From positions 8,919 to 72,918 of the forward strand of contig JAVBWN010000006.1 of NCBI GenBank assembly GCA_036677365.1: a DNA stretch of 64,000 bases. Reading direction: 5' to 3'. The notes under the pieces are model-generated. The model saw nothing but the letters and a program-made list of their open reading frames with translations, ran no database searches and was not told where the DNA came from. The stretch comes from Acholeplasma sp. (GTDB lineage: Bacteria; Bacillota_I; Bacilli_A; Acholeplasmatales; UBA5453). A program made the translations under genes and the position numbers. Positions 33,377-38,286 of this stretch are shown here, piece after piece (position 1 is the first letter of the stretch; each line of letters starts with the position of its first letter).

Positions 33377-33471
33377 AATCAATTTAATCAATCCTAAAAT
33401 CAATAAAATCAATATCAAAATTAAAAATATTGATTAAAAGTGTTGACAACATTGATCAAGGGTAGTATTAT
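33377..33471 (+). promoter_or_regulatory. Promoter with an array of AATCAAT repeats (candidate operator)
   Basis: AATCAAT at 33377, 33386, 33398, 33407; inverted ATTGATT at 33429; TTGACA(33443)-17-TATTAT(33466). Confidence 0.7.
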
Positions 33472-33490
33472 ATGGGTGTAGGTGATGAAA

Positions 33491-33844
33491 ATGAATAAGA
33501 AAAAAGCACTAGCACTCGTGGAAAGAGGACAAATCTCTGTGGGTGCCTACTTAGATTTTAGAGAAAAAGCATTAAGCAAACCTTACAAATTTAAACCAGC
33601 GCGCGGATTTAGATTGGTATTTCTTAAAGGCAACCTCTTATTTCTAACACCGAAGATTCCGTTTTGGACATTCCGTTTCCTAGGTACATTCATCAAACGA
33701 ATTCCAACCGGTGATCAAGTACAGTTCGAGTCATTCAATATCCATGACCTCATCCCGTTATTAAAAACGATTGGTAAGAACAATCGACTCATTGGGGTGG
33801 AATCCCCCAAAGAAAACTTCCTATTTGAAATATGGGGCGTTTAG
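33491..33844 (+). CDS. Hypothetical protein with N-terminal SHOCT-like motif
   Basis: KKKALALVERGQISVGAYLDF; RBS AGGTG supports ATG 33491. Confidence 0.7.
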   Translation: MNKKKALALVERGQISVGAYLDFREKALSKPYKFKPARGFRLVFLKGNLLFLTPKIPFWTFRFLGTFIKRIPTGDQVQFESFNIHDLIPLLKTIGKNNRLIGVESPKENFLFEIWGV

Positions 33845-33856
33845 AAAGGAATACAC

Positions 33857-34225
33857 ATGAGAGACATAACCAAAGCATTTGAACTCATAGGTGCAGACTT
33901 AGTCGTCACCGAAATTCAAAGTAAAAAGAAAGACATTACCGTCAGAGGTGAGTTCCAATTATCGAAGTTTGATTACCTCACCAAAGAACAACAATATTTC
34001 ATCGAAGTCTTCATTAAAAACCAAGGGAACATCAAACAAATTGAAAAAGAACTTGGCATCTCATACCCAACCGTAAAAAAGAGCTTAGAAGAAGTTACTC
34101 AAGCATTAGGGTATAAAGTTGAAGACTCTAAAGACGATGAAAAACGCATGGAAATCTTCGAACGTATTCGCAGAGGCGAACTTACGATTGAAGAGGCAGA
34201 AGCACAACTCAAGAAACTTAAATAG
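33857..34225 (+). CDS. DUF2089 family protein (HTH plus C-terminal SHOCT-like motif)
   Basis: FIEVFIKNQGNIKQIEKELGISYPTVKKSL is the DUF2089 core; tail IFERIRRGELTIEEA. Confidence 0.9.
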   Translation: MRDITKAFELIGADLVVTEIQSKKKDITVRGEFQLSKFDYLTKEQQYFIEVFIKNQGNIKQIEKELGISYPTVKKSLEEVTQALGYKVEDSKDDEKRMEIFERIRRGELTIEEAEAQLKKLK

Positions 34226-34233
34226 GTAAAGCC

Positions 34234-34359
34234 ATGGGACACATCAAATTATTTGATTTAGTGACCAGAGGGGAAATTACACCCAAAGAAGCCGTGAGTA
34301 TCATTAAAAACAAGGAGACCAATTATGAACGACAAATTAAGAATATTAGAAATGCTTAA
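34234..34359 (+). CDS. Unannotated 41-aa SHOCT-like mini-protein
   Basis: MGHIKLFDLVTRGEITPKEAVSIIKNKETNYERQIKNIRNA; AGGT RBS 6 nt upstream; fills the 99-nt gap in the operon. Confidence 0.65.
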   Translation: MGHIKLFDLVTRGEITPKEAVSIIKNKETNYERQIKNIRNA

Positions 34360-34711
34360 AGAAGGCATCATCTCTGTCGATGAAGCCGATAGATTACTAA
34401 AAGCGCTTGAAAAAGAACCAGATAATGCGAAAGTCGAAGTTTTAGTGCCTAAATACAAGACTGATCCAAAGAACTTAATGTTTAAAGTCAGAATCTTATC
34501 ATCCGATGGCGATAAGGTGAATATCAATATTCCAGTAAAATTTGCGAAAACTGCCCTAAAGAGTGGTAAAATTAATTTCAGTGGTAAGTCTGATGTGATG
34601 GAAAACATCGACATCGACGCCATCTTAGAAATGATCGAGGAAGGCGCTGTCGGCGACTTAGTCGATATCACATCCGCGGACGGTGACGTGGTTAAAATCT
34701 GCATCGAATAA
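34325..34711 (+). CDS. SHOCT-like domain protein usually encoded next to DUF2089
   Basis: KLRILEMLKEGIISVDEADRLLKAL; KVRILSSDGDKVNINIP; LVDITSADGDVVKICIE. Confidence 0.85.
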   Translation: MNDKLRILEMLKEGIISVDEADRLLKALEKEPDNAKVEVLVPKYKTDPKNLMFKVRILSSDGDKVNINIPVKFAKTALKSGKINFSGKSDVMENIDIDAILEMIEEGAVGDLVDITSADGDVVKICIE

Positions 34712-34733: not shown

Positions 34734-36479
34734 ATGATTTTTGGAAAACACATCAACAAGTACTATCTCAAGTACGCCATCCCGATGATTTTAGGTGTCA
34801 TCGCCTTATTATATGTGGATTATGTGCAAGTCGAAATTCCAAGAATCTTTGCGGGTATCATCGATAAATTAAGAGAAAGCACATTAACAAACACAATCTT
34901 AAACGAGTCTGTCGAAAGACTCGTTTGGATTGTTTTAATTATGGTGATTGGCCGTGTTTTATGGCGTGTATTTGTCTTTGGTTCTGCGAGATTCATTGAA
35001 CATGATTTACGTATGAGCATGTTTTTACACGCTGAAGCCCTCGGTGTGGATTTTTATAAAGAACATAAAGTTGGTGGGTTGATGACCCACTTCATCAATG
35101 ACCTTGAGGCCATCAGACAAGCGTTTGGTCCAGGGATTTTAATGTTGTTTGACTCACTATTCTTAGGTTCAATCGTCATCATTCGTATGACACAACTCTC
35201 TAGAGAAATGACGCTCATCGCTGTCATCCCACTCGCTTTAATGGGTGTGGTCGCGATGTTCATCATTAAGAAGATGAGACTGAAGTATAAACTCAGACAA
35301 GACTCGTTTGAACAGATGAGCGATTTCACACAAGAATCCTTTTCAGGTATGAATGTCATTCGTGCCTTTGTCAAAGAAGTGAAAGAAGCGCTCTTCTTCG
35401 CTGAAAAGAACGACGATTTTTATAAGAAGCACGTCGACTTTGTGAAAACCATGATTTTGATCAACATCGTCATCACCGTATTCATCAACTTGACGATTTT
35501 AACCATCATCGCCTATGGGGCATGGATCGCCATTACTTCTGATTTTACCCCAGGGATGTTAACCGAATATTTTACCTTATTTACAACACTCATTTGGCCA
35601 GTCATGGCCTTATCACAGTTCGCATCCATCCGCAGCCAAGCGGTGGCGAGCTACAAACGTATTCAAACGTTTATGGATGCGAAAGTGACTGTCAAAGACG
35701 AGCAAAACGTAAAACCGTTTCAACCTTTAGAAGGTGCCATCACATTTAAACATTTGGATTTCAGTTATCCGGATGACCCAGAAAGAAAGATATTAAATGA
35801 CATCTCAGTCACCATTGAAAAAGGTGAAATGGTCGGTGTCCTTGGACGTACCGGTAGTGGTAAGAGTACCTTCGTCGATTTATTATTAAGATTATATAAT
35901 GTTAAGCCAGACGCGCTTTATTTGGATGACCATGACATCATGTCTTTATCTATCCATAATGTCAGAGATCAAATTGCTTATGTACCTCAAGATAACTTTT
36001 TATTCTCGGACACCATATTGAATAACATCGGTTTTTCTGAACCAGCGATGCCGGAAGAAAAAGCCAGCTATTATGCAAGACTCGCCAATGTCCATGATAA
36101 CATCATCGATTTTACCCATGGGTATCAAACCGAAATTGGTGAACGTGGGGTCACTTTATCTGGGGGTCAAAAACAACGCATCTCGATCGCTAGAGCACTG
36201 GCGAAAGACGCACCGATTTTGATTCTAGATGATTCTGTATCTGCAGTAGATACCAAAACAGAAGAATCCATCATCAAGCATTTAGAAGAAATCAGACAAG
36301 GCAAAACTACCATAGTCATTGCACACCGCATATCAACCATTAAAAAGATGGATAAGATTATTTTGTTAGACCAAGGTCATTTACTCGATGTGGGTTCACA
36401 CGAAGAACTCCTCAAACGTAATGCACTGTATCAAGAGATGGTTAGAAAACAAGAATTAGAACATATGGTGGAGGGATAG
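34734..36479 (+). CDS. Heterodimeric ABC exporter subunit 1 (TMD-NBD, MdlA/YheI-like)
   Basis: GRTGSGKS, LSGGQKQR, degenerate Walker B ILDDS. Confidence 0.93.
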   Translation: MIFGKHINKYYLKYAIPMILGVIALLYVDYVQVEIPRIFAGIIDKLRESTLTNTILNESVERLVWIVLIMVIGRVLWRVFVFGSARFIEHDLRMSMFLHAEALGVDFYKEHKVGGLMTHFINDLEAIRQAFGPGILMLFDSLFLGSIVIIRMTQLSREMTLIAVIPLALMGVVAMFIIKKMRLKYKLRQDSFEQMSDFTQESFSGMNVIRAFVKEVKEALFFAEKNDDFYKKHVDFVKTMILINIVITVFINLTILTIIAYGAWIAITSDFTPGMLTEYFTLFTTLIWPVMALSQFASIRSQAVASYKRIQTFMDAKVTVKDEQNVKPFQPLEGAITFKHLDFSYPDDPERKILNDISVTIEKGEMVGVLGRTGSGKSTFVDLLLRLYNVKPDALYLDDHDIMSLSIHNVRDQIAYVPQDNFLFSDTILNNIGFSEPAMPEEKASYYARLANVHDNIIDFTHGYQTEIGERGVTLSGGQKQRISIARALAKDAPILILDDSVSAVDTKTEESIIKHLEEIRQGKTTIVIAHRISTIKKMDKIILLDQGHLLDVGSHEELLKRNALYQEMVRKQELEHMVEG

Positions 36480-36480
36480 T

Positions 36481-38286
36481 ATGAAAGACTTTAAAGAAAA
36501 TACAATCACCAAAACCGATTGGCAAATCGTCAAACGATTGGTTTCATACGCGAAGCCTTATCAAAAGAATTTCATCGTCGCTTCACTCTTGATGATCCTC
36601 GATGTTGCAGCATCATCGATAGGACCACTACTCATTGGTTATACCATTCAAATCATCGATAGCAATCAAAGTGTATCCGATAAAATGTTTAATTTCTTAT
36701 GGCTATCGATCCTATTCTTAGGGATAGTCATCGGGGTATCGTTCATCATTTACTATCAAAACTGGCTCTTACAAGAAGCAGGTCAAAAGATTGTCTATGG
36801 TATTCGTGAAAATGTATTCACCCATATCCATACGTTATCAAATGCACAAATCAACCAAATCCCTGTCGGTAAATTGGTCACTAGAGTCAATAACGATACC
36901 AACACACTCTCTGAAATGTATTCATCGGTTATCGTGAATCTCATCAGAAACATCTTGATGATGTTGACGTATTTGGTCATCATGTTCGTCATTGATTTCA
37001 AAGCTACCCTCATCATGTGCCTTGTATTCCCGTTTGTTTTTGTTTCTACCGTTATCTTTAGAAAGCTATCGAGAAACGCTTATCGAAAAGTAAGAAACAA
37101 TGTCTCAAACGTCAACGCGTTTTTATCGGAAAACCTCTCGGGGATGAGACTTACACAAATCTTTAACCAAGAAGAAAAGAAGAAACAAGCCTTTACCCTT
37201 CAAAGTAAAAAACTCAGAAATTCATACTTCAATGAATTGATGGTTTTCGCGATTTATCGCCCACTTATGTATTTATTCTCGATGGCAGCGACCATCACGG
37301 TTTTATACTATTTTTCAACCTCCATCATCGATATGACGCTTGCCGGGGCATCCACAGCAAGCATCATCCTAAGGGTCAGTTTACTTGTCATGATGTATCA
37401 ATACGCGTCACAACTCTTTGAACCGGTTCAACAGCTCGCAGAACAGTTCAACGTCTTACAAAGTGCCATGGCATCTTCAGAAAAAATCTTTGACGTCTTG
37501 GATACCAAACCAGAGATTGAAGATGAAAATGATTCGATTGAACTTGAAAACTTTAAAGGTGAAATCGAGTTTAAAAATGTTTGGTTTAAGTATGTTGAAG
37601 ATGAATGGGTCTTAAAAGATGTGTCATTTAAAGTCAATCCAAACGATACCGTCGCTTTTGTTGGCGCAACCGGTTCTGGTAAGACCACCATCATGAGTTT
37701 AATCGTTAGAAATTATGACATCCAACAAGGTGAAATCTTGATCGATGGCATACCGATTAAAAAAATCAAACGTTCGAGTTTAAGAGCCAACATTGGGCAA
37801 ATGCCACAAGATGTGTTCTTATTTACAGGCACCATTCAAAGCAACATCACGTTAAATGACGAAACGATTTCGAAAGAAAAAGTCATCGAAGCCTCTGAGT
37901 ATGTCGGTGCGAATACATTCATTGAAAAACTCGATGGCACCTATGACCATATGGTAAGAGAACGTGGTAATAACTTCTCTACAGGCCAAAGACAATTACT
38001 CAGTTTCGCAAGAGCTTTGGTCTATGAACCAACGGTGATGATCCTCGATGAAGCAACCGCGAACATCGACTCTGAAACAGAAGCTTTGATTCAAACCTCC
38101 TTAGAAAAGATGATGAAATTATCCACGATGTTGGTGGTTGCACATAGATTATCCACCATCCAACACGCCGATAAGATTGTTGTCATGCAAAAGGGTGAAA
38201 TCAAAGAAGCGGGTACACACCAAGCTTTATTAAAACAAAAAGGTTTGTATTATCATTTATACGAACTACAATATCAAAAGAAGTAA
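36481..38286 (+). CDS. Heterodimeric ABC exporter subunit 2 (TMD-NBD, MdlB/YheH-like)
   Basis: GATGSGKT, degenerate signature FSTGQRQL, Walker B ILDEA. Confidence 0.93.
   Translation: MKDFKENTITKTDWQIVKRLVSYAKPYQKNFIVASLLMILDVAASSIGPLLIGYTIQIIDSNQSVSDKMFNFLWLSILFLGIVIGVSFIIYYQNWLLQEAGQKIVYGIRENVFTHIHTLSNAQINQIPVGKLVTRVNNDTNTLSEMYSSVIVNLIRNILMMLTYLVIMFVIDFKATLIMCLVFPFVFVSTVIFRKLSRNAYRKVRNNVSNVNAFLSENLSGMRLTQIFNQEEKKKQAFTLQSKKLRNSYFNELMVFAIYRPLMYLFSMAATITVLYYFSTSIIDMTLAGASTASIILRVSLLVMMYQYASQLFEPVQQLAEQFNVLQSAMASSEKIFDVLDTKPEIEDENDSIELENFKGEIEFKNVWFKYVEDEWVLKDVSFKVNPNDTVAFVGATGSGKTTIMSLIVRNYDIQQGEILIDGIPIKKIKRSSLRANIGQMPQDVFLFTGTIQSNITLNDETISKEKVIEASEYVGANTFIEKLDGTYDHMVRERGNNFSTGQRQLLSFARALVYEPTVMILDEATANIDSETEALIQTSLEKMMKLSTMLVVAHRLSTIQHADKIVVMQKGEIKEAGTHQALLKQKGLYYHLYELQYQKK

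Follow-up and report, generated by a model that had tools for sequence, protein, structure and literature searches.

A small gene for a predicted free SHOCT-like peptide between the DUF2089 regulator and partner genes of five Paracholeplasma species

The window (the whole 64,000-nt stretch of Acholeplasma sp. DNA analyzed here) contains a 41-codon open reading frame, referred to below as the mini-ORF, between a DUF2089 regulator gene and a partner gene with a SHOCT-like domain. Judged from sequence comparisons, the mini-ORF is a real and young small gene that is under selection, encodes a product of a known domain kind and is already deposited as hypothetical. The best explanation as a whole, to which we assign a probability of roughly 0.55, is that the mini-ORF is a young genuine gene that arose from one insertion and encodes a SHOCT-like peptide, a module that would tune the regulator.

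Genomic context of the mini-ORF

The mini-ORF is the third of four small co-directional genes located behind a near-consensus promoter, and two ABC exporter genes come next. No terminator-like site was found between the promoter-like site and the start of the first ABC gene (34734). The features of this region are listed below.

33443–33471, forward strand: promoter-like site at the operon head, TTGACA-17-TATTAT, 11/12 consensus matches and the best site of the region (consensus match only)
33482–33844, forward strand: gene 1, 117–120 aa by the start chosen, with an N-terminal SHOCT-like segment (hhalign), a hydrophobic stretch and a C-terminal region
33857–34225, forward strand: DUF2089 regulator gene (PF09862 at 4.8e-24), with a Cys-less zinc-ribbon remnant, an HTH and a C-terminal SHOCT-like tail
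34224–34227, forward strand: weak Shine-Dalgarno (SD)-like AGGT of the mini-ORF, overlapping the DUF2089 stop TAG (34223–34225) and lying 6 nt 5' of the mini-ORF ATG
34226–34324, forward strand: stretch that replaces the 10–13 nt junction of non-carrier species
34234–34359, forward strand: mini-ORF, 41 codons, predicted free SHOCT-like helix-turn-helix peptide MGHIKLFDLVTRGEITPKEAVSIIKNKETNYERQIKNIRNA
34306–34374, forward strand: invariant 69-nt block, covering the mini-ORF from codon 25, the partner SD, the 35-nt overlap and 15 nt beyond
34312–34317, forward strand: strong SD AAGGAG of the partner gene, inside the mini-ORF, 7 nt 5' of ATG 34325, invariant in all carriers
34325–34711, forward strand: partner gene, 128 aa, with an N-terminal SHOCT-like domain (PF22746 at 8.6e-13), a linker and a small alpha/beta domain
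34734–38286, forward strand: two ABC exporter genes, 581 and 601 aa, in the same orientation, with orthologs that match ABC_membrane and ABC_tran

The mini-ORF runs from ATG 34234 to the stop TAA at 34357–34359 and overlaps the partner gene by 35 nt. The peptide has a net charge of +3, and no membrane-spanning stretch was found in it. The first-pass annotation had read a 41-aa product from ATG 34234, with an AGGT 6 nt upstream that overlaps the DUF2089 stop, and had noted an overlap with the start of the next gene; each of these readings is confirmed in the sequence. It had also described the gene as hidden, which holds for the ORF track used at that stage but not for public gene callers, which predict the mini-ORF on all contigs inspected. 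The ortholog in Paracholeplasma manati is deposited in RefSeq as WP_263607929.1, 'hypothetical protein [Paracholeplasma manati]', and the exact peptide occurs on 49 contigs in a protein collection drawn from NCBI, JGI, ENA and Logan sources.

Gene 1 is kept upstream of the DUF2089 gene throughout Acholeplasmatales. The heads of gene-1 proteins align with DUF2089 tails at an hhalign probability of 95%, and no Pfam family was matched by gene 1. The tail of the window DUF2089 protein matches PF22746 with 18.6 bits (E = 0.0014), and the N-terminus of the partner protein resembles that of LiaX with a score far below the cut-off. Both gene 1 (33482–33844) and the partner gene (34325–34711) encode a similar ...G..V.V.S.DG..V.I... 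strand-turn-strand end after their SHOCT-like heads, and from this likeness the two may be distant paralogs; the net charges of their products are +12 and -6, respectively.

The DUF2089 protein of this genus is without zinc ligands, and its N-terminal region in the window (33857–33975; MRDITKAFELIGADLVVTEIQSKKKDITVRGEF) contains no cysteine. CPxC...CxxC is present in the DUF2089 proteins of other Acholeplasmatales, and the window protein is still a weak match to the Pfam zinc ribbon (E = 0.0056).

The 35-nt overlap would also allow the mini-ORF to be the N-terminal part of a longer protein, in which a programmed +1 frameshift or transcriptional slippage yields a double SHOCT-like fusion with the 128-aa partner. 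Because the partner frame has no stop codon from 34298 onward, a +1 shift within 34298–34356 would fuse both; the region is invariant among carriers, and double SHOCT-like small proteins occur at another locus (L077, described below). Against such a fusion, the only candidate for slippage is an A5 run (A6 in one species), with no slippery +1 site and no rare or stop codon at the shift position; the partner starts from its own canonical SD and ATG, located where non-carriers have them; and no stimulatory RNA structure is predicted (z = 0.57). A programmed frameshift fusion was rejected for want of a shift site, and we consider it very improbable.

Fold and family of the predicted peptide

The AF2 model of the peptide, a single-sequence model of a length at which helices are easily predicted, contains a helix at residues 6–11, a turn at R12–T16 (RGEIT) and a second helix at residues 17–40, with a pLDDT of 93. 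The SHOCT-like head of the partner protein was predicted in the same register, with helices at residues 3–12 and 18–29 separated by a turn. The modeled peptide shows the features of the SHOCT-like fold, namely a short helix, a G-x-[IL]-[ST] turn and a second helix starting with x-x-E-A. A Foldseek search of the AF2 model against the PDB returned nothing at E ≤0.001; the top matches were helical fragments of large enzymes, which is uninformative at 41 aa.

Profile and pairwise comparisons place the peptide with the SHOCT-like segments of its neighbors. The ortholog set aligns with DUF2089 tails, partner heads and gene-1 heads at hhalign probabilities of 81–86% (P ~1e-5), and the peptide is recovered by a custom HMM with E = 2e-4. 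Compared with 204 DUF2089 tails and partner heads from 110 loci, the peptide reaches a median Smith-Waterman score of 38, vs. 16 with unrelated small ORFs. The suggestion of the first-pass annotation that the motif resembles the SHOCT-like segments of both neighbors beyond chance is borne out by these hhalign probabilities and by shuffling in the comparison with the peptide's own DUF2089 tail (p ≤0.0005). In Pfam, the peptide scores 14.2 bits (E = 0.035) and the P. manati ortholog 17.6 bits (E = 0.003) against PF22746, both below the gathering cut-off of 27 bits. Since the genuine DUF2089 tail of the window itself reaches only 18.6 bits, this cut-off is strict for a 32-position model. The peptide passes the similarity tests and misses the Pfam cut-off, and we therefore call it SHOCT-like while placing it outside formal Pfam membership. 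No Pfam match to the classical SHOCT domain (PF09851) was found at E up to 10.

The peptide resembles PF22746 members (DUF2089 tails and YvlB/LiaX-type heads) in comprising about 30 residues arranged as helix, G-x-[IL]-[ST] turn and helix with 'EA'. Its location between a DUF2089 gene and a SHOCT-like partner gene also agrees with PF22746 systems, in which a DUF2089 regulator and a SHOCT-like partner form an operon (Ravi et al., 2024, mSystems, PMC11237479). It differs in that the module here stands alone as 41 aa, is present in five species only and falls below the gathering cut-off, and in that its last 11 residues are read from the 5' end of the partner gene in another frame. Separate genes that encode only a SHOCT-like domain do occasionally occur (PMC11237479). 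Classical SHOCT likewise consists of two helices in a short module that many unrelated proteins carry at one of their ends (PF09851; Eberhardt et al., 2013, PMC3581485), but it is mostly C-terminal on larger proteins.

The P. manati ortholog carries a different label in UniRef, where UniRef100_A0ABT2Y4W7 is named 'Antitoxin VbhA domain-containing protein', a name that probably comes from another library. Apart from this name, the reading as a VbhA-type antitoxin failed every test run: no Pfam VbhA match was obtained at E up to 10, the inhibitory motif [ST]xxxE[GN] is absent by regular expression, and the operon genes encode DUF2089, SHOCT-like and ABC exporter proteins, with no Fic gene among these neighbors. 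This reading was rejected and we give it hardly any credence.

Distribution and history of the insertion

Ten Paracholeplasma species are present in the genome collection, and the mini-ORF was found in five of them (the window's genome, G004, P. manati G009, G006 and G007). In the other five (P. vituli G005, G001, G002, G003 and G008), the DUF2089 stop is followed by 10–13 nt with GGAG and then by the partner ATG. In the 10-species alignment, the replacement of this junction corresponds to a net insertion of ~86–91 nt with ambiguous exact boundaries. In a tree built from the flanking 3 kb with the insertion removed, the five carriers form one clade (bootstrap 99) with P. vituli as sister, so a single gain is the simplest history.

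The mini-ORF is absent from the other 297 of the 307 genomes surveyed in the order. A word-indexed search of 5.8 billion proteins recovered only two 90% clusters, both of orthologs, and a full HMMER scan of 1.84 billion representatives recovered only one 50% cluster, which contains the peptide's own orthologs. The first-pass annotation had named absence or breakage in close relatives as a sign against the gene. Formally, it is absent from five congeners; these are phylogenetically coherent non-carriers, however, and not broken copies.

The insert could in principle be an RNA element or a mobile-element scar in which the ORF is coincidental, and the intergenic junction that it occupies is indeed variable across the order. 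However, no Rfam match was found, and the folding energy equals that of shuffled sequences both for the insert region (z = 0.12) and for the partner initiation region (z = 0.57). Searches of the genome with blastn-short and tblastn recovered the locus itself and no second copy of the insert, and the substitutions follow codon positions. Based on the Rfam and folding results, an RNA element was rejected and RNA structure does not explain the conservation; we see scarcely any likelihood in this alternative.

One substitution in the tail of DUF2089 (34199–34225 in the window and its orthologs) has the same distribution as the mini-ORF within the genus. The tail reads AEAQLKKLK or AESQLKKLK in all carriers and AEALLKKLK, AEVLLKKLK or AEELLKKLK in non-carriers, and the Q/L position lies in the core of the SHOCT-like second helix. 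The change coincides with the mini-ORF gain. Q or K is also found at this tail position in two distant species without the mini-ORF.

Selection on the reading frame

All seven protein variants and six DNA haplotypes of the mini-ORF are intact, and a metagenome scan yielded only two further copies, both intact, and no broken ones. In the 31 codons that precede the partner start, at least 3 changes are needed at the first codon position, 5 at the second and 14 at the third (p = 0.0035). By the Nei-Gojobori method, dN/dS is 0.06–0.18 in the mini-ORF frame, and the two alternative frames give values from ~0.5 to above 2. Of the 22 changes, no more than 8 alter an amino acid (binomial P = 2e-5 to 1e-3); the exchanges seen are conservative (I/V, F/Y, I/L, S/T and R/K). 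The dS of the mini-ORF is 0.33–0.65 and that of gene 1, DUF2089, the partner and the ABC gene 0.2–0.9, indicating that the region mutates at the local rate. These four neighbors have dN/dS of 0.02–0.10, so the constraint on the mini-ORF is weaker than theirs by a factor of only two to three. From these substitution patterns, the peptide sequence is under purifying selection in its own frame only.

The spacer between the DUF2089 stop and the mini-ORF ATG is 8–11 nt long and differs in each carrier species (GTAAAGCC, AGGCTTAAATC, GGTGACTCC, GTACACACC), and an SD-like core of AGGT, GAGG or AGGTGA, read by eye, is kept 4–8 nt before the ATG in every carrier. Downstream, the 69-nt block contains 0 changes among carrier haplotypes, compared with 0.18–0.29 changes per site in its flanks (Poisson P ~1e-4 for the inner 51 nt). 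In P. vituli, which has no overlap, several synonymous differences from the carriers are visible by eye in the same stretch of the partner gene. These differences fit a dual-frame constraint in the carriers, possibly together with a constraint on the initiation region, and the invariant block could in part reflect constraint on the translation-initiation region of the partner. Conservation and dN/dS in relatives, the check that the first-pass annotation had proposed, gave only intact copies and a dN/dS of ~0.1 in the peptide's own frame only; its view that the segment is not random spacer agrees with the intact ORF, the in-frame dN/dS, the kept SD-like motif and the 69-nt invariant block.

Two other accounts of the mini-ORF bear on these patterns. 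The first regards it as what a partial duplication left behind, a non-functional ORF that stayed open by chance and has no useful product. The ORF is short, has a weak SD, is narrowly distributed and lacks homologs outside the clade, and this junction gathers duplication debris elsewhere, such as the stop-broken partial DUF2089 in G060 (locus L016). However, the carriers have diverged at synonymous sites to the extent given above, yet all copies found are intact; the changes fall mainly at the third position of codons, and do so in this frame alone, and the flanking spacer diverges freely. We regard a leftover as quite improbable.

The second is that the mini-ORF serves translational coupling, carrying ribosomes from the DUF2089 stop across the partner SD and start. 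Once the insertion had pushed the two genes apart, such an ORF would have restored or tuned their coupled translation, with the peptide being incidental. The spacing of 10–13 nt between the two genes in non-carriers is usual for coupled genes, the mini-ORF begins 8 nt downstream of the DUF2089 stop and terminates 32 nt beyond the partner ATG, and the SD, the start codon and the overlap make up the invariant block. A pure coupling ORF need only stay open, yet here the amino acids are conserved, as seen from the in-frame dN/dS and the conservative replacements. The peptide also matches a known domain family, and the partner, with its own strong AAGGAG in an unstructured region, has no obvious need for such help. 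Coupling with an incidental peptide is an unlikely explanation in our judgment; coupling and peptide roles are compatible.

Origin of the inserted sequence

The best match of the peptide within the genome is the adjacent DUF2089 tail, with 8/22 identical residues and a Smith-Waterman score of 45 (shuffle p ≤0.0005), and the same tail is the best peptide match in a tblastn search of the whole genome (E = 0.57). The head of its own partner protein scores 32 (p = 0.013). Across the 204 segments, DUF2089 tails and partner heads match the peptide to about the same degree, and the DNA identity, assessed by eye, is only 45–49%. The best single match is the DUF2089 tail of another genus (LLKQGKITPEEAVSLLKKK), with 11/19 identical residues. 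An identity of 8/22 seems less than a simple neutral duplicate formed on the short carrier stem (0.08 substitutions per site) would retain, which implies either fast divergence or a piece from elsewhere. The possible sources, as far as the sequence allows them to be told, are a local partial duplicate of a neighboring SHOCT-like segment, with the genome's own DUF2089 tail being the slightly better match, or a captured foreign copy.

The start codons of the mini-ORF and the partner gene are 91 nt apart, which is not a multiple of three and accounts for the frame offset. By eye, the 5' spacer of the mini-ORF looks similar to the SD region of the ancestral junction, and the partner gene is now preceded by the strong SD. 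This layout would be the expected trace of a tandem duplication, either of SD, ATG and head, or of tail, stop codon and SD. The alternative raised in the first-pass annotation, a remnant of a longer gene, is upheld in part: descent from a partial duplicate is plausible, and young duplicates exist at the same junction elsewhere, but the ORF is under purifying selection and is not decaying.

Proposed role of the peptide

In the explanation we favor, ~86–91 nt would have been inserted once, at the tight junction between the DUF2089 and partner genes, in the ancestor of five Paracholeplasma species. The peptide would be translated from the weak SD over the DUF2089 stop, through the partner SD and start, and would end 35 nt inside the partner gene. 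Synthesis of a free module would thereby accompany that of three proteins, each containing this module as well. By occupying the surface, of a protein or of the membrane, to which the tethered modules bind, it would tune how the DUF2089 regulator is held by its partners or released from them. Translation of the mini-ORF across the partner SD may also alter how often the partner is initiated. Reasoned from this context, a role as a modulator or decoy is plausible, and the decoy or anti-regulator proposed in the first-pass annotation is likewise a reasonable suggestion.

Published work provides a setting for this proposal. DUF2089 proteins with a zinc ribbon, an HTH and a SHOCT-like tail are found in operons predicted to act in membrane-stress signaling, and SHOCT-like domains have been proposed to bring proteins together on the inner side of the membrane (PMC11237479). 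Self-oligomerization of SHOCT has been tested in one experiment, with a negative result, and the authors suggested that the domain binds to something else (PMC3581485).

SHOCT and SHOCT-like domains are widespread, and DUF2089 operons are predicted envelope-stress modules. A free and selected module between regulator and partner offers a simple natural experiment on what the module binds and whether the regulator is tuned by it, and sister species with and without the mini-ORF exist in culture, as in the pair P. manati (present) and P. vituli (absent). Taken alone, the mini-ORF is of modest value for annotation, since its protein already has an entry as hypothetical. It also provides a clean, datable case in which an insertion gave rise to a small gene with a dual-coding overlap, on which purifying selection then acted.

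Small ORFs at the same junction in other lineages

A total of 79 partner-gene loci from Acholeplasmataceae, Izemoplasmatales and relatives were surveyed. The gap between the DUF2089 and partner genes is 60–424 nt in 33 of the 79 loci and usually holds a small ORF. Several of these junction ORFs (L059, L077, L024/L021 and L128/L028; 42–57 aa) are SHOCT-like by Pfam or by the custom HMM. The 42-aa ORF at L059 (2208–2336) shares 31/39 residues with the last 39 residues of the upstream DUF2089 protein and, by this identity, is a young tandem duplicate of the SHOCT-like tail. Two tandem 57-aa ORFs are found at L077 (2104–2462). The first is similar to the partner head in its front half and to the DUF2089 tail in its back half (13/23 identical). 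The second shows a significant match in its tail-like half alone (11/23), and its similarity to the partner head is not significant (p = 0.15). The ORF at L024 shares 15/26 residues with the head of its own partner, and the ORFs at L128 and L028 share 24/42 residues with each other.

These junction ORFs have the same position as the mini-ORF and a similar size, and at least two are clear partial duplicates of the SHOCT-like segment of a neighbor. They are not orthologous to the window peptide: their Smith-Waterman scores with it are 35–45, no better than those of any DUF2089 tail, and they thus look like separate origins. Counting the Paracholeplasma clade, free SHOCT-like junction ORFs occur in at least five lineages (with L059, L077, L024/L021 and L128/L028), and the survey indicates that the junction repeatedly yields such ORFs by partial duplication. 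The window mini-ORF is probably one such case, with good evidence of selection.

A broader reading, which we offer tentatively, is that free SHOCT-like mini-proteins arise repeatedly and independently at this operon junction by partial duplication of DUF2089 tails or partner heads and are kept because the free module competes with tethered ones. If this were true, gain/loss pairs would give a first experimental handle on SHOCT-like binding, and the mini-proteins would be a bacterial counterpart of the eukaryotic microProteins that titrate their parent regulators. Id and LITTLE ZIPPER are examples of eukaryotic microProteins. The likeness lies in a small single-domain product that derives from the interaction domain of a larger regulator and could titrate its partners; it is a conceptual analogy only, with no homology.

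Other small ORFs were also observed at this junction. At L016 (G060; reverse complement, 1857–2550), the 692-nt junction holds two related ORFs of 61 and 71 aa (MRRNHFGHNTTQRYKHQK...) together with a partial DUF2089 copy broken by stop codons, and a related 61-aa ORF is present in L020/L090. In Izemoplasmatales, a different conserved junction ORF of 34–42 aa has an acidic/aromatic start and a basic ...KRRY end (for example, MNDWSIFFTEMKDQIERRKFIFEELENKRRYGVKL) and was found at L058, L061, L063, L065, L068, L076, L078, L081, L086, L087 and L101 (~2320–2490 in each); it is not SHOCT-like and has no Pfam match. Among Acholeplasmataceae, the junction ORFs of L021, L024, L026/L115 and L112 encode paired cysteines before the helical motif (SCSTCS, SCCVH and VCTC), which hints at a small metal- or redox-linked variant.
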